DNA of 57,339 nucleotides, counting the filler, from Basidiobolus ranarum (lineage: Eukaryota), in assembly GCA_040143965.1 (NCBI GenBank). It is 2 parts of 2 records of this genome, joined end to end, with 100 filler letters (N's around TTAATTAATTAA, not from the genome) between each part and the next. Parts side by side here need not be neighbours in the genome. Positions count along the whole stretch, not along the records: positions 28,765 to 57,339 come from JASJQH010000113.1; 1 more part is not named here. One strand, given 5' to 3'. Every line of letters begins with the position of its first letter. The first letter of the stretch is position 1. The notes below the pieces were generated by a model. That model had not been told where the DNA came from, did no database searches, and saw only the letters and a program-made list of their open reading frames with translations. The translations under genes and the position numbers were made by a program. Shown here in pieces: positions 6,694-55,758 of the stretch.

Positions 6694-8172
6694 ATGGCAC
6701 AGGTGGCTTCAAACTCTATTTACGAAATCACGAATTCCCCAGTATCAACAGACTCGACTGGTTCTTCTCTGAATAATCAACCGCCCCTCAATAGCCCCGA
6801 AGTTGAACCCTCGACCCATAACAAGAGAAGAAAAACGTCCCGCGCTTGTTCTCATTGTCAAAAGGCTCATTTAACGTGTGACGATTGTAAGTAAAACCTT
6901 ATTTCCTGAAGACAATAAGATAGATGTACTTATAACTTTGAACAATTGAAGCACGCCCTTGTAAACGTTGTATAAAGCGTAATCTAGCTACTACTTGCCA
7001 AGACGGTCAAAGAAAAAAAGCCAAATATTTACTAGATAATAATACTGAAGGTATTCATCCAGATCCTTTAAAATTTTGGAGTTTAATTCCCATTTTCTTA
7101 TAGAACTAATGTTACTCTATTGTAGTTGCATCAGAAGTTAATTTTTCTTCTTATAACCTACCACCTACACCGGGTTGCGGATTTGGTTCGAAAGCTCTCA
7201 ATCTTGAATATTCAGTCTTAAGTAACATGCTGGCCAATCCAGCAGAAAATATCATTGATTCAACTTGGAGCTCCACTCTGGAACAAGGTTCTGATAATAG
7301 TTTATTGTCCATCGGTACTTTGGTGCAGAGAAGCCCAAATCTAATGAACGTTGTACCTGCCGTAAGTGCTATATACCACAACCCTACGGCTCCATATAAC
7401 TATATCGAAGGATACCATTATCTGTTTCGATATATTAAAGAAAGGTACGTTTTATGAAAAAAAAGATACTTTTGAAGAGTCTGACACTTTATATTGGTTC
7501 CAGAATGTCCAAAGAAGAGATCATCCGTGTATGCAAAGCATTTACATCATTCCGGCCATCTTTTATCGCATTGGTTAAGAACTTGACTGAAGAAGATATG
7601 ATATATATGGAGAAAAGCTTTCTAAGAATTGTACTAGTTAGTAGAGGTTTTTCATTGTTGAAGTGTAATTGTAGAAGAAATTAATCGGATTTGTTTTGGT
7701 AAGGAATTTGAGAAATTGATTAGCTTTTCTGGAACTCCAACGGTAGTATGGCGACGAACAGGGCAACTCGCTTTGGCTGGGAAAGAATTTTCCTTGTTAA
7801 CACAATGGTCTAAAGAGGATTTATTCAGCAAGCCGACTTATATCTATGAGGTACTGGCTTCCTCTTGTTAATTGTTGCCTACTCCTGCTAATCTCTATCT
7901 CATAGTTAATGGATAACAAATCGGCGATAAGTTACTGGGATCACTTTGCCACACATGCCTTTGACAACTCTGAGCTGTCAGTCAAAACCAAATGCAACCT
8001 GGTTACGCCTACAGGGCGAATCGTCCCTTGTGCCTTTTGCTTCACCTTCAAACGAGATATATTTGACATCCCGCTTGCTATAGTCGGAAATGTGAGGTTT
8101 AATTCTAGTGCATTGTTGATCGACTTATACTTATGTTTCGTTGCAATCTAGTTTTTACCAATTCTCGGATAG
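6694..8172 (+). CDS. ERT1: Zn(II)2Cys6 + PAS-domain gluconeogenesis transcription factor (ERT1/AcuK/RDS2 family)
   Basis: [43 protein letters not shown] after splicing; RPSFIA, SGTPTVVWRRTG, and C-terminal RDIFDIPLAIVGNFLPIL. Confidence 0.9.
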
Positions 8173-14906: not shown

Positions 14907-16306
14907 CTACTTTTTCGCAACCATTCGCTCTAGAACGCGAGTGATTTTCTCCACCGCATCTTGAGGAATTTGGTGATGAAATACGACTCTAGCTCGGTTT
15001 TTCCCATAATCCATGATACGAATCTTGTGATCGTATAGCTCTTTAATGATATCACTCATGTTGATTCCAATCGATTGGCTACTGAAAAACACCATATTTG
15101 TGTGCACAGGACAGACCAAATCAAATCCCATTTCCGTAAGTTTACCAGCTAGACTACTTGCATTCTGGTGGTCCATTGACAGCAAGGGTAAATGTTCAGT
15201 TAAGCAGTATTCTCCAGCAGCAGCCAGAAATCCCGCCTGTCTCCATCCACCACCGAATAGTTTACGAAAATGCTTTGCTTTTTGAATGAATTTCTCATTT
15301 CCCACCAATACTGATCCGATGGGTGCACCCAGTCCTTTTGAAAAGCATAAAGACATCGAGTCAAATTGTGCACCATATTCATAAATGGGTAGATTCGAAG
15401 CAACTGAAGCATTCCACAAACGAGCACCATCCAGATGTAATTTTATTCCTCTCTCTTTAGTTAGAGCCCTGATCTTTCTAATTCAACATATTAACCAACA
15501 GTCCAAGAATATAAAATACGAGGTTTGACTTACTTGATTTCTTCCAAAGGAAAGATCATCCCGTTGCAGGTATTCTCAAGAGAAACCACTTTAGTCGGAG
15601 CATTATGAATATCCTCGTCTATCAAATTCTCTAAAATTTCTTCTGAAGTTAAATGGATTCCATTTTTAGCCACCACTGGGGTGACACCAGCTTGTGAATG
15701 AAAGGAGATACCGCCAGCTTCATAGACATATACATGTGCTCTATTATCACATAATACTGATTGTGGTGGGTCTCTCAAGTGTGTACGAAGACCCAACTGG
15801 TTAGTTAAGGTACCTGAGGTACAAAACAGTGCTGCTTCATGTCCAGATAATTGGGCCACTTTGCGCTCAAAGTTACGGATACTTTCATCTTCCTAAAAAT
15901 CCAGTTACCAATAAGTACTAAGTTTCTCTACCGAGAAAAGGTATTATCGTTTAATTGGGTTATTTTCAAGAAAGTACCCCGAAGACGTCGTCTCCAACAG
16001 AAGCGTTCCTCATAACTTTAAACATCGCTTCGGTAGGTTTAGTTACTGAATAGAGTGGTGAAAGTGAAGCATTAGTGGTTTTATTCTAAAAAGCAAAAAA
16101 CATACCCGAATCCAAAGGTTGACTTTACCTGTATCACTTCTCAAGTCCAAGTATTCCTCTCCATTAGTCACTGCTACCTTACCACTACCATAGTATTGTC
16201 TTATTTGAGCTTTTCCAACCCGTGTATAGGTTTGCTTCAAAGTAGTTGAACTACCAACAGTAGCTTTGTAGAGTAAGTTGGAAAATTTTGACAGGTTGGA
16301 CTTCAT
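14907..16306 (-). CDS. GLY1: Low-specificity L-threonine aldolase, 4 exons
   Basis: DLRSDTVTKPT, VGDDVFGED, SGTLTNQ, LENT, HLDGARLWNA, CFSKGLGAPIGS (PLP Lys), GGGWRQAG. Confidence 0.95.
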
Positions 16307-29471: not shown

Positions 29472-30124
29472 TTAGCAGATCCACAGTGTATATAGAAGAT
29501 ATATAAAGAGTAATTCTACAGTTGAAGGCACCTTGGGCCTATTTGTTAGAGGCGAAATAAATGAAATCAATGGAGAGCACGGTTGAAAAATGATTTTTAA
29601 TCTCAAGGAAACCGAATTCGAAAGCCGTCCCGTTACACGAAGTAATTAAAAAGGCTCGATGCATGGGATCTCCATCTGGGCCAATTAGAGAGAACTTTAT
29701 TTCCTATCTACACGTATACCAATACTCAGTCATTACTTACTAGATCTGATGAGTTGACATTGTTATAAATAAGTTGTGTAAGATTTAAACTAAATATTCA
29801 ATACAAATAACCCTAACCCACCATTCCTGATTGATCTTGCTTTTACTCGCTTGTAGTTTTCATACTGAATACTCTTTTTAATATTGACATTGTATTTGTG
29901 CTTTTTAGCATGCAGTCTTATCTGATAGTTTCTCTAGGTCTTATCCATCCCTTGTTGATTGTTCAATATATGCTTGTTGAAAGAGTAGACAAATAATTAT
30001 TTAATCTACTTCAATATTAGAAATCGAATAAAGCTAGTGGCGCAGTCACCTTATGTAATTCGATTAGTTCAGCTATATAAGAGTCATTTTATATTTATAG
30101 TCAACACTTGACGATATTACACTA

Positions 30125-32206
30125 ATGGATAGGAACAACGAAGATAACTTAAGTATCGATGAATCAGGAAAGACCTTCAACCCTGATCCTTTATTAAGCG
30201 AGTTAAAAGTGAATTTGGAGAACGATAATTACTCTAAAGCACTGGGAATATGCCAAAGACTAACTCGACAAGCACAACGCGAAGTTGCTCAAGCTGACCT
30301 GGTAAGAGAAGTTGTCAGAGAAGAATTGGTATGCATTGACGCTCACTTAGCCACTATTTATACAACCCAACCTCTTGAGGAGTCTTCTGTAATCGAAAGC
30401 CAAGTAGTAGATGCGGATTCCAAACCTAGTAGTTTAATCAAATTTTCTAAAAAACTTATAACTGAGTATAGCTTTGAGTTATCCTCTTTTCCCAACATCT
30501 ATTTAGCTCATTTACACAGTCGTTTTCGGTGGCTTTTATACTCTCGTATGACAGCCAAGACCAAGACTACGGAAAACTGGGACACTCTAATTGAGTACGC
30601 TTTAAAAGAACATCCCGAACTTGCTCGTACTGGTATTCAACAATTACTAAAGTATAAAGATCTAAAAGGAATCTATCAATTTTTTGGAAAGGAGATCGGG
30701 GACAAGTATCAGAATCAGATTGCTCTCGATGTTGAATCTAAAGAGGTAGAAAGTAACGAGGAAATCCCTTTAGTGACATATTATTGCAAACCTAAAGATG
30801 TTGAAATCACTTTTGTTGCTGACGAGAGGACACTTGGCGAATGTCAAACTAATGTTTTACATTCCTCCGTAACTCGAGTTGGATTAGACTGTGAATGGAG
30901 ACCTCTATCTTTCTCAGACACCACCAGATGTGCTCTTATACAAATTGGAACTGCAAATCACATATATTTATTAGATGGGATTAACCTTCCAAGAGATCTA
31001 GTAACTCAATTTCTCGTAGCATTGTTTGGTTCCAAGGAAATCATCAAGTATGGATATGATTTTAGCTCTGATATCTCGATCCTTTGTCAGACTTATCCTG
31101 AAATTGAAGGCAAAACTCTATCTCAATACGTTAACTTGGCACGACCTCAGCCGTTAATTGTAAAGCTGCTCACCTCCACTGGAACTGGAACTGGCCTAGC
31201 TGCTCTCGTCAAATCTGTGCTTAAATGTGATCTCGACAAGAAATTTCAAATTTCTGATTGGGAACGTAGACCCCTATTAGACGATCAAATGCTGTATGCA
31301 GGTAAAGAGATAGAACTGTATACTCTCATTTTCTCATACTAAATGGCAATTTGTACCTCAGCCAACGACGCATATTGCTTGTTGGATTTAGCCAACGGTT
31401 TGAATGGAATCATCGAGGATGTCACCACCGAAGTATCTGCACTGCTTAAAAAATCCATTGAGCCTACAACTATTACGCTAACCATGAAGAGAGAAAAACC
31501 CAAGAGATCATCAGCAAATAAGTTGATAGTACGACCACAACCAGCTTCTGACAATGGTTCGAAACAATCTGTATCCGAAGTTCATACATTGATTGATCCA
31601 AATCTACCAAAGCTTGCACGAAAACTTCGACTTTGTGGAATCGACGCATTGGTACCATTATCTTCCAACACACAGTCCATCTTAAACCTCATCACCTCCA
31701 AAGAATCCCCTCGAATTTTCTTCACAAAAACCAAGGCATTATTTAACGCTCTCTCCTCTCATTTGCAAAATGTTCAAACGAACCCCGAAACCGGGGAATC
31801 TACATTCGACACCGTTGGGCTACATCTATTGCAATCTAATACGACACTTGAGCAAGTGACTGAGATCGTAGAGAAGATGAGCATTCGAGTTACAGTAAAA
31901 GACCTATTAAGCAGATGTACCGTATGCAATTCAAACCGATGGATCGGAAGAACATCCAAGGAAATTCAAGAAAGACAAAACTTTGGTGGAGTCAGATATC
32001 ATGAATTCGTTCGCAATAGTTCGGCTGAGTTGGAATCAACCGAAAACTCCAGTCACATCAAAAGAAAAGATTGGATTCCAGAAACCATTTGTGAAACAGT
32101 GGAGAGGTTTATTGAATGCGAAGAATGTAACAAGATTTATTGGATTGGAGGGCATGCGAAGAGAGTTATAAAGGGTATGGAAGGGATACTTGATACCTCC
32201 ACCTGA
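30125..32206 (+). CDS. MUT-7/EXD3-like DEDDy 3'-5' exonuclease fused to Mut7-C (PIN-like + Zn ribbon), 2 exons
   Basis: VGLDCEWRP (ExoI), GYDFSSD (ExoII), QISDWERRPL..Q..YA|ANDAY (ExoIII, intron 31302-31361), DPNLPKLARKLRLCGID, SRCTVCN...CEECNKIYWIGGH. Confidence 0.9.
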
Positions 32207-41570: not shown

Positions 41571-42032
41571 ATTGTCTATTGCTATTAGGATTTGAGTCGT
41601 GTAAATAGAACAATTGCAATGGAGTGGCAATCCTAGTGAAGCCTTTGATAGATAGCTTCTTCTATCTTGCCTTATATTTATAGGGAATCTATCGGACACT
41701 TATAGAAACACTTTCACTCACGCTACGGTCGTACGAGACGAGTTTCAACTAAAACTCTCCTAAAATCTTATCGTTCCAAGCAGGGAAGATTCCTGCAATC
41801 CTACGATGTTCTGTCACATCATATCCGAAACAAATCATACTTGATGGACGTGGCTTTAAGGATTTTAACTGAATCAAAACAAGGCTGTATGAATATTAGC
41901 ATTAGTAAAGGGTTGAGTAGTGCATTTTCCAAAGAGTGGTTTATTATCCATAATTCTACATACAAAAGTGGAGATTCAGTGAACAGCAAAGATTTCTTCT
42001 AAATAACTAGATTTTCTTCTACTCGCATTCGT

Positions 42033-43514
42033 CTAATCGATACGATGATGTCTAATAGGAATATCCCGATGAAGGTCATATAATTCATATTCCGCATTCT
42101 CCTCGGATTTCTCGACGGATTCTCCTACTAGATTGTCTCTTCCTTCAGATGTGTTGGGAGTATCATTGCTCCTTTGAGGATAACCACGGAGAATTTGATA
42201 GAGTATCACTGCTGAGATGGTAGATACTCCGATTCCATCTAAAGCAATAGGACCAAATGTAACTTTGAGATCACCAGTCATGCCAGTCCCTAAGAGAACG
42301 GAGATACCTGCGGTAAGGAGGTTTCGTGGGTTGGTGAAATCGATTTTGTTCTCAATCCAAATACGTCCACCACTAACTGCAATCAATCCAAATAGTATAA
42401 TACTTAATCCACCAAAAACCCCCGCTGGAATTGTATTGATGATGGCACCAAACTTGGGTAGAAATCCAATAATCAATGCAACTGTAGCGGCCGTAACAAA
42501 TACCAATGTTGAAAAGATCTTTGTAACTGCCATAACACCTATGTTCTCTGCATAGGTAGTAACTCCGAGAGATCCTAAACTACCGGCAATGATTGTAGCC
42601 AGAGCATCCCCCATAAACGCCCTTCCGATATACTGCTCAATGTTTCGGCCGGTCATAGCGGAGACTGCCTTGATGTGACCAATATTTTCAGCCACAAGAA
42701 TAATAACCACTGGCGTGATCAAGCTTATAGAATGACTGTCAAACTTGGGAGTATGAAAAAGTGGCAAACCTATCCACTTTGCATTACCAACACCAGTATA
42801 ATCGATTTTGGTTCCAGCACCAGCATAACCACAAATCAAATTGATTACATAGCCAACAATGGCACCCAGAAGAATAGGTACACGTCGGGTAAATCCTGGC
42901 CCATAAACAGAAAAGAATGAAACGGCAAGAACAGTTGAAAATGCCATCCAGGCGTCAAAAGAGTTGGCTGCTGCTTGGTTTACAGCAGTTCCTGCCAAGT
43001 TCAATCCGATTGCCATCACCACTGCTCCAGTGACTACTGGAGGCATCAGATATTCGACCCAACGATGTCCAACCAAAAGCACGATAATCGCAATGGCTGC
43101 ATAGACTGCTCCAGCAATAATGATTCCACCCTGGGCGAGGGGTATATTCTCATTAAGTCCAGCCCCAGGGCTATATTTGTATCCAGTAGCAGCCGTAACC
43201 GTACCAATAAAGGCAAAGGAACTACCAAGGTATGAAGGGACACGACCACCAGTAATAATGAAAAACAATATGGTTCCAATACCTGAGCAAAATATCGCGG
43301 TGTTCGAATCAAAACCACACACCAAAGGAGCAAACACCGTACTTCCAAACATAGCTAACACATGCTGTAAGCCGAGTACGATGAGCTCTATCCAAGGTGG
43401 ACGCTCATCAGGACCTATTTGACCTCCTTTGACGAGTGTGAATTTTGGGAAATAAGAGCTCAACCTAGATCTCGAGCTGTTATTTATAGAGACTCCTTCA
43501 ATTTTACTGCTCAT
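42033..43514 (-). CDS. NCS2/NAT uracil-pyrimidine permease, bacterial RutG/UraA-like, intronless
   Basis: QHVLAMFG, PSYLGSSFAF, PPVVTGAVVMAIGL, AENIGH, TTYAENIGVMAVTK (UraA/RutG-type NAT motif). Confidence 0.93.
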   Translation of the reverse strand: MSSKIEGVSINNSSRSRLSSYFPKFTLVKGGQIGPDERPPWIELIVLGLQHVLAMFGSTVFAPLVCGFDSNTAIFCSGIGTILFFIITGGRVPSYLGSSFAFIGTVTAATGYKYSPGAGLNENIPLAQGGIIIAGAVYAAIAIIVLLVGHRWVEYLMPPVVTGAVVMAIGLNLAGTAVNQAAANSFDAWMAFSTVLAVSFFSVYGPGFTRRVPILLGAIVGYVINLICGYAGAGTKIDYTGVGNAKWIGLPLFHTPKFDSHSISLITPVVIILVAENIGHIKAVSAMTGRNIEQYIGRAFMGDALATIIAGSLGSLGVTTYAENIGVMAVTKIFSTLVFVTAATVALIIGFLPKFGAIINTIPAGVFGGLSIILFGLIAVSGGRIWIENKIDFTNPRNLLTAGISVLLGTGMTGDLKVTFGPIALDGIGVSTISAVILYQILRGYPQRSNDTPNTSEGRDNLVGESVEKSEENAEYELYDLHRDIPIRHHRID

Positions 43515-44112
43515 GGTGGAAAACGAGAAGGCTGGATATAGCAGAGAGTGTAGTGTTCAGTTGCACCACTTAACACAAGATTACATTATCCTTGTTTGTC
43601 AATACTATATCCTAGAGAAGTAAAAAAAATCTTGCCTTTACTATATAAGGAGATCCCCTTTTGTAACACCAGTGAGTAACCAGATCTGCACCCTGTTAAC
43701 ATTCGGTGAATATCAAATATCGATTTTCTTTAAATCGTTTAAAAGAGACCAATTGGGAGGCTGCAACATTCAGCCAATCTCAATCATATTTCAAAGTCAT
43801 TCATTTCCAGAAATATATGTTATCTATAGACTGTGAAACAAAGTATAGGTAAGGGGCAACAGGATTTGGAATTTTGGAGGGAAATGTTGACTATTTCTCC
43901 GGCGTTTGCTTAGTGTTGGTAACATATGTTAGGATGACCCCTGGTAAAGGTGAATCCATTTAACTCAGGGAATGTTGGATTTCAGTTGTCATAGTTAACA
44001 CGAACCATTGAAGATACCATTTATCCAGCACGATGGAGGAATGAGTGAGTGAAAAAGTACGACGAAAGGAAAAATCAACCGAGAGTAGCATTGCATTTTT
44101 TCTTCACATTCA

Positions 44113-47971: not shown

Positions 47972-48701
47972 ATGAGTACTCCGAAGTGGATCGATGTTAC
48001 TACTGAAAATCTATATTCGTTAGATCATTTCGTTATCCCTTCTCACTATGAACAAGAGATTGAAAGTATCCTAATTCCGCATGGTATCATTATGGATAGA
48101 GTTGAAAAGCTAGCCAAATTAATTGCTGCTGATATTCCTGATGTTGAGGAGCCTAGCCTAGGTAAGGTTCGATTTTCTCAGTAATAGGTTCTACTTCCTC
48201 AAGGTTAAACCTCAATCTTTTTCTATAGTTGTTTGTTGTGTGTTGAAAGGTGGACACCAATTCTTTGCTGACTTGATTAATCAGATTAAAAAATTACAAA
48301 CCGCTAGTGGCAAGTCTATCAAGCTCAGTCTGGAGTTTTTAAAGGTTAAGAGTTATCATAACGAACAGTCCACCGGGGAAGTAAGCTTTTCTTTGACCAA
48401 AAACGAACTCATGTATTACAAGGGGAAGAACATACTGATTGTGGAAGATATTATTGATACTGGACGTACCATGCAGAAAATTCTGGAGAAATTATCCGAA
48501 TACGAGCCTGCTTCGGTTAAAGTCACCTCTCTCTTAATCAAGAAAACGCCACTATCTAATGGGTATATTCCAGACTATGTTGGCTTCGCTATTCCGGATG
48601 CCTTTGTAGTAGGTTATGCGTTAGATTACAATGAACATTTCCGTGACCTTGACCATATAGCTGTGATCAGTGAACATGGGAAAGAGGCCTACGCCCTATA
48701 A
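47972..48701 (+). CDS. HPRT1: Hypoxanthine-guanine phosphoribosyltransferase, 2 exons (intron 48162-48228)
   Basis: VLKGGHQFFADL, KSY loop, LIVEDIIDTGRT, FVVGYALDYNEHFRDL. Confidence 0.95.
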
Positions 48702-52062: not shown

Positions 52063-55000
52063 ATGAAAGTCACAGGCACCAGCTTGCTGATTCTTGGAAT
52101 TGTGTTCCACGCAATTTACCTATGGAGTATTTTCGACATTTATTTTACGTCTCCATTAGTTCATGGAATGACTCCTCACCAAGTTAACGCACCTCCCCCA
52201 GCTGAGCGATTAGTTTTATTTGTTGGCAAGTTACAAGTTACTATTATCTTTAATGAGACACGAAAGCCATCAAAGAGACACACGTTTCTAAATTTTTCTT
52301 ATAGCTGATGGTCTTCGTGCTGACAGATTATACCAAGTGAAGTATCGAAAGGAGGCATATACTTTCGCCCCATACCTTAGAGACATAATACAGAATAATG
52401 GAACCTGGGGTGTATCTCATACACGTGTCCCTACAGAATCTAGACCAGGACATGTGGCTATTATTGCTGGCTTCTATGAAGATGTCAGTGCAGTCACCAA
52501 AGGTACCCTATATATATTGCAAACTTGTCTCAGTAAAAAAAATTAACTTGTCGTTTTCTTGTCAGGGTGGAAGATGAATCCAGTAAACTTTGATTCAGTA
52601 TTTAATCAAAGTCGACACACTTGGTCTTATGGTTCCCCAGATATCCTTCCTATGTTTTCTCATGGTGCCTCTGATCCCGATAAGGTGGAAACTTTCATGT
52701 ATGCAGCAGAGGATGAAGATTTCTCTAGAGGTAAAAGATCAACTAGCCTTCTCCCTAGTTACAGTAGTAAAATTAACGATCATCTCGATTTAATAGACGC
52801 TACAGAACTAGACCAATGGGTATTTGAGCAATTCACGGATCTTTTTACTCGTGCCAAGAGCGATGACAACCTCAGAAAGAAACTACATGAAGATAAAATC
52901 GTATTTTTCCTTCATCTTCTTGGTTTGGATACCAATGGACACGCATATAAACCAGAATCTGACGAGTATCCTTAGTTTTTGTTCAATTGCTTGACCCATT
53001 TATTTATCATCTGTGTGAAATATGCATTCCCTTAACTCAATTGAACCGAGATACCTGAATAATATTAAATATGTCGACCAAGGTATTCAAAAGATGGTTG
53101 AAATGGTAGAGGAATTCTACAATCATGATGGAAAAACCTCTTACATTCTCACTGCTGATCACGGAATGGGAAATAGAGGTAGCGTACCATTCCACCGCGT
53201 CTTTAGCTTCGTTGCAAAGGTATTAACGTGATTAATCTTCACGTGTTTTAGGAAGTCACGGCGATGGTCATCCTGACAACACAAGAACCCCGTTGATTGC
53301 TTGGGGTGCTGGTATTAAAAAGCCCAACCATGAAAACCCCTCTGGCCATGATGATTTCTCTGCCGACTGGGATCTTGGTAACGTTCAGCGTAATGATGTT
53401 AAGCAAGCCGACATTGCTCCCTTGATGGTTCACCTTCTTATTTGCTTTTGCCTCATTTTTTTTGGATACTAATTTCCCTCATATAGGCATCTTTAGTAGG
53501 ATTGAACTATCCCGTCAACTCCGTGGGTGTTTTGCCTCTAAACTATTTGGAAAATACTGCCAAGTTCAAAGCCGAAAGCTCCTATGTCAACGCTAAGCAA
53601 ATTCTGGAGCAATATATCGTCAAAAATGGTATTTCTTCATTTAGTTTACAAAGGTTTACCTGTTTGTTAATCTTGTTTGATATAAAGCGATGAAAGAGAA
53701 AACCGAGTTTGCATTCAAGCCATTCTCCCCTTTAAGCAGTGGTGCTCATCATTATGCTACCTTGGATCTGAAGATACAAAAATTAATCGAAGAAGGAAAC
53801 TACGAAGAAGCCGAGGCTCTATGCACTGTTTTGATTGATCTTTCTCTGAAGGGTCTGCGCTATCTCCAAACGTAAGACAGTCAGCCCAACTCATATTTTA
53901 GTATGTACCCATACTAAGTTTACTCTCGCTGTTATTAGTTATGACTGGCTTTTCCTGCGATCAATCGTTACAGCTGGATACATAGGCTGGATAGTTTACT
54001 GCTTAATTTTCATCCTTGAGACTTTTGTGGTAAACCCAGAGCTTGAGCAGCATTCGTTTTCGTCACAAGGATACCAGAAGTCAAGTAGATCGGCTAATGT
54101 TATGGTTAGTTGATATGGTTTCCTTTTTACCGTTCTTTATCTAATTCTATCCAAAGATCCAAGGGATTGCTGTGTCCGGTTTTATCGGTCTATCGTATAT
54201 TTTGTTTGTCCAAGACTCTCCTATCTTGTATTATGCTTACGGAGTATTTCCGTTTTTCTTTTGGGCTGAGGTGTTCAAAAAGCAGAGAGTATTGCGTAAC
54301 ATATCTCCCAATAATAATCTAGCCTGGTACACCGTTTTCGGAATTGGCCTAGCTTTTGTAGTGACTCTTGAGTTACTGGTTAGTATTCCTCCTTTCGCAG
54401 ATTTAGGCATTCGACTATAGAAATCTAACAAATCCTTTAAATGTTAGGCATTCAGTTACTTCAACCGTGGGGTTTTAAGCTGCTTCTTTGTACTTGGTGC
54501 CACTTGGCCTTTCTTCATGCCTCACAAAGTTCAAACCGAAAATCGGAATACTCTTATTATCTGGTCCGTATTTTGCCTATGCACCGCCGTGTTCCCTAGT
54601 CTCCCAGTCGAGAAAGGAGAGGATATTCCCCTAGTGTATGTATTTCCGGTTGATAATAAGGTGTAATACATTGTGCTAAGATTCTTCTTTTAGCTTAATG
54701 GGCGGATTTTTAGTCTTGGTATCTGGATTCATTGCTTACATTAAGGCGCCTACCTTTATGAGACCAAGCGACCTTAAATTGGGACAGAATGTCATTGGAT
54801 TTCAGGTATTATTTTAACTTTTAATGAACTTGGTAGTTTTTAACATTGCTAACTCACATCTAAAAAGATGTTCATGTTAGTGCTAAGTATGGTACTTGTC
54901 CACAATACTGCTGGCCATTTACAGGCAAAGCGCGGACTTCCAATTCTTAACCAATTGCTAAACTGGCTTGTACTTGGTAATTATCATTTTTTAAGTCTGC

Positions 55001-55758
55001 TTGTAACTTGCAGCTCTCTAACGCGATTTTACTTAGCTTTGTCGTCATCACTCCCATTCTTATATGGTCGTAAAGCAAGTCATTATTATATTCACCGTTT
55101 AGTGATTATTTATTTGGCATTTGCCCCAGCCTTCGTTCTCTTAAGTATATCATACGAAGCGATGTTTTATTTCTTTTTCTCCAACACACTTCTGTTGTGG
55201 ATTACCATTGAGAAGCAACTCTATTTCAATAACGACACCAACCCACGCCTTAGTCCCATTAACGACACTGGAAGAAGTACTGTCGCATATCGAGTGCTCC
55301 AACGTGGAGATATTCGAATCGCTGCTACTTTCTTATTTTTCATCAATGTCGCATTCTTTGGAACTGGAAATATCGCTAGTATCAGCAGCTTTTCGTTAGA
55401 ATCGGTATATCGCCTTACCACTGTATTTGATCCCTTTTTGATGGGAGCATTGTTGATCTTCAAGATTTTGGTGCCATTTTTATTGGTCTCTTCCGCTTGT
55501 GAAATCCTGGCCCGTTCCCTTGATCTTCTACCGTTTTCACTTTTCTTATTAACGCTTTCATCTACTGATGTGATGACTTTAAACTTCTTCTACTTAGTAC
55601 GTGATGATGGTAGCTGGTTGGAAATCGGAACAAGTATCAGTCATTTCTGTATTGCTTCTTCATTTGTTATTTTTACCATCGTTTTATATGGAGTATCGAA
55701 TTTCATGGTTGGTTCTGTCATCATCACAAATTCCGATGGAAAACGAAAGTTCCATTAA
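52063..55758 (+). CDS. MCD4: GPI ethanolamine-phosphate transferase 1 (PIG-N), many exons
   Basis: [71 protein letters not shown]. Confidence 0.96.
52226..52304 (+). other. GC-AG intron (first intron of MCD4)
   Basis: G|GCAAGT...ATAG|CT restores LFVADGLRAD. Confidence 0.85.
52966..53050 (+). other. U12-type GT-AG intron
   Basis: 5' GTATCCTTA, branch TTCCCTTAAC (53027-53036), 3' GAG with no polypyrimidine tract; restores SDEYLNNI. Confidence 0.92.

Follow-up and report, generated by a model that had tools for sequence, protein, structure and literature searches.

What is a bacterial-type uracil permease doing in the genome of an early-diverging fungus, and how long has it been there? The question is raised by a 57,339-nucleotide stretch of Basidiobolus ranarum DNA (assembly GCA_040143965.1; two parts joined end to end, hereafter the window), whose second part, from JASJQH010000113.1, contains an intronless gene for a 493-residue membrane carrier (Table 1). 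An earlier note, made from the sequence alone, had described this gene as a RutG-like pyrimidine permease and a candidate for horizontal transfer. Our analysis makes it likely that its product is a functional pyrimidine permease, proton-coupled and of the NCS2/NAT family (UraA/RutG branch), and that the gene was acquired from Ktedonobacteria in an ancient transfer, since domesticated, and shared by early fungi and Dictyostelia.

Family assignment and predicted transport function

The permease open reading frame (ORF) is uninterrupted from its first ATG to the stop codon, with only 14 further codons upstream of that ATG in the stop-to-stop frame. As it is colinear from end to end with its bacterial homologues, no intron is needed. 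Pfam Xan_ur_permease (PF00860) matched residues 44–413 (285.3 bits, cut-off 27), and the general NCS2 model TIGR00801 scored 337.1 bits, above its cut-off of 291.8. The top NCBIfam model was RutG (TIGR03616, 519.5 bits), in keeping with the earlier description of an intronless RutG-like permease. The RutG label was right for the branch but too specific for the protein, as the equivalog cut-off of this model is 758.65 bits. Among the controls, E. coli RutG scored 848.9, a Paraburkholderia protein 722.6 and a Dictyobacter protein 553.6 bits; the window protein and its eukaryotic and Ktedonobacterial relatives scored 454–554 bits, all below the cut-off. Judged by these scores, the window protein is not a RutG equivalog.

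The five sequence runs that had been quoted as nearly identical to proteobacterial RutG (PDER.P, LFF.ITGGRVPSYLGSS, LMPPVVTGAVVMAIGLNLA, GVTTYAENIGVMAVTK.STLVF and PKFGA.I.TIP) are all present, and identical in E. coli K-12 RutG in the BLASTP alignment. Overall identity to RutG is 53% (228 of 431 residues), so near-identity holds only inside these runs. Identity to E. coli UraA was 36%, and the UraA equivalog model NF007995 scored 313.6 bits (cut-off 477). The match to UapA was confined to residues 192–413 (77–83 bits by phmmer; 20% identity in the fold search), which bears out the distinction drawn previously from UapA-type purine NATs. On the evidence of profiles and alignments, the window protein is assigned to the uracil (UraA/RutG) branch and lies outside the UapA-type purine branch.

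An AlphaFold model built on 19 eukaryotic homologues (mean predicted local distance difference test score, pLDDT, 72.7; predicted template modelling score 0.72) showed the 14-helix, 7+7 inverted-repeat fold of the NAT/NCS2 family. Its five best PDB matches in Foldseek were all UraA chains (E 2e-26 to 2e-22; template modelling (TM) scores of 0.79–0.87 normalised to the target), led by 5xls (TM-score 0.86, root-mean-square deviation 3.1), with UapA and SVCT1 ranked far below. Residues S99, F100, E276, H280, A322 and E323 map to UraA S72, F73, E241, H245, G289 and E290; the roles of the uracil-coordinating and proton-coupling residues of UraA are taken from passages of PMC5539350. The residues that characterise the UraA/RutG branch are in place, with E276 as the Glu of transmembrane helix 8, E323 as that of helix 10 and H280 as the proton-coupling His, and the signature motif is E323-N324, as in UraA, not the Q-N of the UapA type. 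This E/H/E triad is kept in 28/28 eukaryotic rows of the alignment, in 8/8 Ktedonobacteria rows examined and in 7/7 chytrid rows.

The best-scoring curated family is that of E. coli RutG (b1006), which serves the rut operon as its pyrimidine:H+ symporter. RutG shares the Ala ahead of E-N in the signature motif (TYAENIGVM). It differs in having A88 and A46 where the window protein has F100 and S58, in a loop after G111 that is three residues shorter, and in shorter tails. Passages of PMC6308229 describe RutG as a uracil/thymine transporter with a wider specificity than UraA. The closest bacterial relatives, permeases of the Ktedonobacteria Dictyobacter, Tengunoibacter and Thermosporothrix (57–62% identity), share S58, F100 and the lengthened loop with the window protein, but have shorter C-terminal tails and Val rather than Thr at position 88. 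UraA (PDB 3QE7, 5XLS, 8OMZ) resembles it in predicted fold and in the uracil-binding and proton-coupling residues, despite the low identity and sub-threshold model score given above. Aspergillus nidulans UapA and UapC share the superfamily and the 7+7 fold, but belong to a different, purine-specific branch; to our knowledge, the known fungal NATs are purine carriers.

These features suggest a uracil (pyrimidine):H+ symporter serving salvage or nitrogen scavenging. By homology, it would be a homodimeric 14-helix symporter of the elevator type, presumably in the plasma membrane, carrying uracil most probably and thymine possibly; the base would be bound by E276 and E323, and the proton coupled by E276 with H280. 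Gene order in bacteria fits this assignment. In Dictyobacter alpinus (locus L001, 5968–13284) the homologue lies directly upstream of pyrB (aspartate carbamoyltransferase), carA and carB (both carbamoyl-phosphate synthase subunits), which indicates uracil salvage and not Rut catabolism; pyrP of the Bacillus pyr operon has a like arrangement. No rut genes flanked the homologue in the five Ktedonobacterial loci examined, and a scan of 18 ORFs in the window, made up of three individual ORFs and 15 of the 21 stop-to-stop frames that reach 150 amino acids, found no rut-type families.

Two other features of the Dictyobacter loci were recorded. In both D. alpinus and D. aurantiacus (L002) the homologue is preceded by genes for an FKBP isomerase and a methylase of the Eco57I/MmeI type, and in D. 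aurantiacus a small TIR-domain ORF (7740–8084, + strand; TIR_2, E 1e-12) stands immediately downstream, in place of the pyr genes of D. alpinus.

Could the permease carry purines (xanthine, uric acid or hypoxanthine) instead of pyrimidines? The NCBIfam xanthine permease model pbuX does match the protein, at 189.5 bits, and database names for the family read 'uracil-xanthine permease'. The homologue in Ktedonosporobacter rubrisoli (L003) adjoins a xanthine-dehydrogenase-type molybdoenzyme, and the window itself has a hypoxanthine phosphoribosyltransferase-like ORF at a distance of 4.6 kb from the permease. However, the pbuX score is far under its cut-off of 414 and also far under the RutG and UraA scores, the E-N site with E276 and H280 is that of UraA and RutG, the match to UapA is far weaker, and the nearest bacterial copy is linked to pyrimidine biosynthesis genes. 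A purine carrier is quite improbable on this balance. Two points count against the pyrimidine assignment itself: the scores lie below both the RutG and the UraA equivalog cut-offs, so specificity could differ, and we found no transport assay of any eukaryotic member in the literature.

Relatives, trees and the origin of the eukaryotic lineage

Relatives were sought in a collection of 5.8 billion proteins, in which the 8000 candidates sharing most words were scored and the best 120 listed. Besides the protein itself, the top three matches were all from Basidiobolus: a B. ranarum entry at 85% identity and a pair of paralogues from B. meristosporus at 86% and 82%. Among the matches listed, Ktedonobacteria (Dictyobacter and others) came next, at up to 62%, interspersed with Mortierellomycotina, Mucorales and Dictyostelia at 53–60%. 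A profile of 19 eukaryotic sequences returned 21 more eukaryotic entries among its listed matches (Mucorales, Lunasporangiospora, dictyostelids and two EukProt entries), and many dictyostelids carry two paralogues each. In a library of 50%-identity representatives the best match was a Cavenderia protein, and two divergent representatives were second Mucorales paralogues. The metagenome protein P0147 was 60–64% identical to proteins from Globomyces, Boothiomyces and a Chytridiales isolate, and the family is therefore also present in Chytridiomycota; a scan for the contig of P0147 was uninformative, as the two sequences it found (L086 and L087) were bacterial relatives with 72% GC and 43% identity. 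No Dikarya, animal or plant proteins were among the best 120 matches of each search, which does not prove their absence.

Of 579 candidate stretches from species-representative prokaryote genomes, 573 proved to encode a relative. The 80 retained comprised 9 from Chloroflexota, 1 from Gemmatimonadota and 70 from Pseudomonadota, at 49–60% identity. The proteobacterial affinity proposed in the earlier note did not survive this comparison: Proteobacteria are 49–58% identical to the window protein, against up to 62% for Ktedonobacteria.

Some entries among these relatives are unusual in themselves. The homologue P0310 of the chytrid Boothiomyces sp. JEL0838 (688 residues) has ankyrin-repeat Pfam domains annotated alongside the permease domain, which reflects either a genuine fusion or the merging of gene models. 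Several of the Ktedonobacteria NCS2 permeases (P0008, P0016, P0018, P0026) are named 'nitrate reductase' in UniRef/NCBI, which looks like an annotation error that has spread through the class. In P0006, a betaproteobacterial-type homologue of 556 residues, the first ~130 residues are repeated (APDERLPWPQT... twice), suggesting a tandem partial duplication or an assembly artefact.

With one exception, described below, the maximum-likelihood trees placed the eukaryotic sequences inside Ktedonobacteria. In a careful IQ-TREE analysis (LG+C20+F+G4 with posterior mean site frequencies (PMSF), 84 hand-picked rows by 476 columns) they formed a single clade (support 100/98), enclosed by successive Ktedonobacteria nodes with support of 98/92, 100/98, 99/93 and 100/99; Limnocylindrales, Longimicrobium and Proteobacteria, including E. 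coli RutG, lay further out. A quick IQ-TREE analysis without ten long rows left the topology unchanged (98 for the eukaryotic clade). When seven chytrid rows were added, and two divergent Mucorales paralogues and other long rows left out, a quick tree supported the clade at 97 and a careful one (81 rows, LG+C20 PMSF) at 100/99. Eukaryotes thus form one clade in all four IQ-TREE trees, with support of 97–100. They were likewise one clade, deep within Ktedonobacteria, in a FastTree of 310 rows, to which full-length 50%-identity representatives had been added as intermediate outgroups and from which rows of <380 residues had been dropped (378 to 310). With the root among distant NCS2 representatives, eukaryotes nest inside bacterial diversity. 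An approximately unbiased (AU) test rejected a clade of the 23 Ktedonobacteria-type rows without the eukaryotes (difference in log-likelihood 89.2, p-AU 0.0025).

Two shared characters are consistent with the trees. T88 is found in 34/35 eukaryotic rows (28/28, plus 6/7 chytrids), whereas Ktedonobacteria have Val in 22/23 rows and Thr in 1/23. Between G111 and N121, 23/28 eukaryotic rows have a loop of 9 residues and the chytrids one of 8 or 9; the loop varies from 6 to 10 residues in Ktedonobacteria, and among the outer bacterial rows, proteobacterial and other, 19/20 have 6. Four Ktedonobacteria-type rows have the 9-residue loop, of which Dictyobacter sp. and P0005 are among the rows nearest the eukaryotes, and P0031 and P0039 lie a few nodes further out. 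A count of majority-residue columns (threshold 0.6) gave 6 in which eukaryotes agree with Ktedonobacteria and 0 in which they agree with Proteobacteria, although so few informative columns lend weak support.

The bacterial origin of the eukaryotic permease lineage is therefore well supported, with Ktedonobacteria (Chloroflexota), not Proteobacteria, on the donor side, and the gene is a eukaryotic NAT of the uracil branch derived by horizontal gene transfer (HGT). As the eukaryotic clade is not only nested in Ktedonobacteria but also widely shared, the acquisition was an ancient one. The earlier proposal of transfer thus stands for bacterial ancestry and fails for a recent transfer private to Basidiobolus, given the homologues in Chytridiomycota, Mucorales, Mortierellomycotina and Dictyostelia. 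The gene is also too old for a recent private acquisition: it was present before three Basidiobolus genomes diverged and before a duplication, and it has a long stem. A maximum-likelihood phylogeny had been suggested as the check, with a broad, vertically inherited eukaryotic clade as the outcome that would speak against transfer; a broad eukaryotic clade was found, but it sits within bacteria.

An inverse history, with a vertically inherited family of eukaryotic ancestry from which Ktedonobacteria obtained their copies, is very improbable. Its distribution across three fungal phyla and Amoebozoa would fit, as would a FastTree of 203 rows in which eukaryotes were a basal grade outside all bacteria; its root was set by UraA and a single distant paralogue. 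We set this tree aside because the program gave a long-branch warning for it and wider outgroup sampling reversed the result, with Proteobacteria, other Chloroflexota and several Ktedonobacteria branches splitting off in succession before the eukaryotes. The rejection of Ktedonobacteria monophyly and the lack of Dikarya, animal and plant members among the matches listed also stand against a eukaryotic source.

Along with the 203-row tree, several results weigh against an ancient transfer shared by all these eukaryotes. The groups used in the AU tests were all named after the tree had been seen. A grouping of Basidiobolus with nine inner (Dictyobacter-type) Ktedonobacteria, apart from the other eukaryotes, was not rejected (difference in log-likelihood 9.7, p 0.34). 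The window protein is no closer to other eukaryotic lineages, with mean identities of 57.9% (Mortierellomycotina), 53.7% (Mucorales) and 53.2% (Dictyostelia), than to Ktedonobacteria (57.7%). The quick and the careful tree differed in the place of the chytrids, which were at the base of the clade in one and sister to Mucorales in the other. The sole stable grouping within the eukaryotic clade was that of Mortierellomycotina with Dictyostelia (99 to 100/99), and uniting the 17 fungal rows without Dictyostelia gave a borderline result (difference in log-likelihood 52.3, p 0.043).

The unrejected grouping is what would be expected if a Dictyobacter-like Ktedonobacterium had been the source of a separate transfer into Basidiobolus; the eukaryotic clade would then be an artefact uniting several fast-evolving, AT-rich recipients of separate transfers. 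In the trimmed alignment, Ktedonobacteria reach 61% identity, at least as much as other eukaryotes, each eukaryotic lineage has a long stem (0.3–1.06), and 2–5% of the genes in Basidiobolus genomes are bacterial-like (passages of Tabima et al. 2020, PMC7466969), all of which would suit such an event. Eukaryotic monophyly with support of 97–100, including in the mixture-model trees, and the distribution of T88 speak against it, and even an independent transfer would be older than the Basidiobolus species split and gene duplication (stem 0.48–0.59). We regard independent acquisition as unlikely; the Basidiobolus permease most likely goes back to the same acquisition as the other copies, which span three fungal phyla and Dictyostelia.

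For the favoured reading, that of an ancient shared transfer, the source would be Ktedonobacteria-like soil Chloroflexota. A long residence in eukaryotes would account for the host-like composition, the duplication within Basidiobolus and the presence of the gene in chytrids, Mucorales, Mortierellomycotina and Dictyostelia. For the last of these, a secondary transfer out of a Mortierellomycotina-like fungus is the most likely route. As a tentative and more specific history, a single transfer from a Dictyobacter-like donor may have entered the fungal stem before chytrids and terrestrial fungi split, and so have supplied early fungi with their uracil permease. Chytridiomycota, Basidiobolus, Mucorales and Mortierellomycotina would then have retained the gene; it would have been lost in Dikarya, which use NCS1 carriers of the Fur4 type instead, and passed from a Mortierellomycotina-like fungus to the ancestor of Dictyostelia.

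Uracil uptake in Dikarya proceeds through NCS1 Fur4/FurD. A bacterial-type uracil permease in early-diverging fungi and social amoebae, traceable to one class of soil bacteria, contrasts with the unrelated Fur4 of model fungi. In Mucorales and Basidiobolus it would control the uptake of pyrimidine analogues such as 5-fluorouracil. The gene resembles a fresh transfer into Basidiobolus because the other eukaryotic copies have diverged from it as much as the bacterial ones, and best-hit or alien-index screens should be read with caution, since an old shared eukaryotic clade can mimic a fresh transfer. The gene is also a candidate marker for HGT-based relative dating; if the single transfer into the fungal stem is true, it would supply relative-time constraints tying together Ktedonobacteria, early fungi and social amoebae.

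Parts of this picture connect to published work. Kourkoulou et al. 2018 reported that Dictyostelium NATs cluster with bacterial clades, as possible transfers (passages of PMC5972032); the Dictyostelia NATs analysed here share the eukaryotic clade with the window protein. Neither these passages nor a term search of the main text of that paper turned up a mention of early-diverging fungi or of a Ktedonobacterial source. According to passages of the NAT/NCS2-hound paper (PMC6308229), B. meristosporus has 16 NAT/NCS2 members, and the uracil cluster takes up 3% of eukaryotic members. Bacterial-like genes of Basidiobolus are mostly intronless and indistinguishable from the host in composition, as stated in the parts of Tabima et al. 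2020 cited above. We found no paper on this permease family in early-diverging fungi or on its Ktedonobacterial source, although the supplementary HGT lists of PMC7466969 and PMC11291939 may include the gene.

Genomic setting, tails and expression signals

An intronless gene of bacterial type might also reflect bacterial contamination or a chimeric assembly. For this locus the chance of that is negligible. The permease ORF has a GC content of 0.435 and a third-position GC content (GC3) of 0.354, within the range of nine other window ORFs (GC3 0.30–0.435), whereas GC3 was 0.65–0.77 in three of four bacterial homologues measured (0.37 in Dictyobacter alpinus). Eukaryotic genes flank it on both sides: a cytochrome P450 gene 461 bp downstream and a BTB protein gene 599 bp upstream. 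Two other Basidiobolus species have orthologues that are 82–86% identical and end in the same C-terminal tail.

Spliced eukaryotic genes on the same contig, to which the earlier note had pointed, were also found. The Beta_elim_lyase gene is split into 15533–15892 and 14910–15482 (− strand), with profile positions 30–152 in one frame and 151–283 in another, ~50 nt apart, and the PIG-N (PigN) gene is broken into four pieces within 53850–55755 (+ strand). At least two genes near the permease are thus split by introns, and introns and families confined to eukaryotes are present to either side of it. Further eukaryotic genes in the window encode Myb, C2H2, mitochondrial carrier (Mito_carr), phosphoglucomutase and Mut7-type exonuclease proteins. 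These observations support a permease gene integrated in a eukaryotic chromosome, with ameliorated composition, as the earlier note had argued from composition and spliced neighbours.

Table 1. Coordinates of the permease gene and its associated elements in the window.
Feature	Coordinates	Strand	Basis
Complete single-exon coding sequence, NCS2/NAT permease of the UraA/RutG branch (493 codons; stop codon at 42033–42035)	42033..43514	−	Profiles, alignments
Segment with S99, F100, E276, H280, A322 and E323	42174..43424	−	Foldseek match to UraA 5xls; residue mapping
N-terminal tail, residues 1–30, predicted disordered	43425..43514	−	pLDDT <50; alignments
C-terminal polar tail, residues 448–493	42036..42173	−	pLDDT <50; alignments
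TATATA element ~130 nt upstream of ATG; consensus-like match only, putative promoter role	43642..43647	−	Read directly
Start codon in Kozak-like context CCACCATG	43512..43519	−	Read directly
AATAAA hexamer ~90 nt past stop; consensus-like match only, putative polyadenylation role	41940..41945	−	Read directly

The polar tails proposed for the protein are present, and they are ~12 (N-terminal) and ~20 (C-terminal) residues longer than those of Ktedonobacteria. The part ahead of the QH motif has 47 residues compared to 35.5 in Ktedonobacteria, and the C-terminal tail has 50, where the medians are 30 for Ktedonobacteria (8 named ones) and 9 for Proteobacteria (59 ORFs). A conserved YFP motif begins at residue 21. 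The final ~20 residues (EYELYDLH...R.D) are conserved in 4/4 Basidiobolus sequences, including both paralogues, and absent from other lineages. Tails of fungal transporters can act as sorting and turnover signals, and by analogy the conserved end suggests a Basidiobolus-specific signal of this kind. The disordered cytosolic tails would then be eukaryotic additions, probably for sorting and turnover.

As consensus matches, the TATATA element, the start context and the AATAAA hexamer fit eukaryotic expression. No purine-rich run resembling a Shine-Dalgarno sequence was present in the ~15 nt just before the start codon.

The neighbouring P450 gene (40032–41570, − strand) is itself intronless, has an N-terminal membrane anchor and lies in the same orientation as the permease. 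A P450 gene also follows the homologue in Ktedonosporobacter rubrisoli (L003 8590–10011, + strand), but the two P450 proteins are only 24% identical, so that co-transfer with the permease is unlikely and the arrangement is probably a coincidence.

Two further ORFs in the window deserve mention. At 30101–32206 (+ strand) a 3'-5' exonuclease ORF and a Mut7-C RNase ORF lie in the same frame, separated by a single stop (boundary 31342/31343), and are probably one Mut-7-like gene with a short intron. The hypoxanthine phosphoribosyltransferase ORF mentioned above is a fragment at 48162–48701 (+ strand; TIGR01203, 159.6 bits, cut-off 150; Pfam Pribosyltran), and its distance from the permease places two nucleobase-salvage genes close together.

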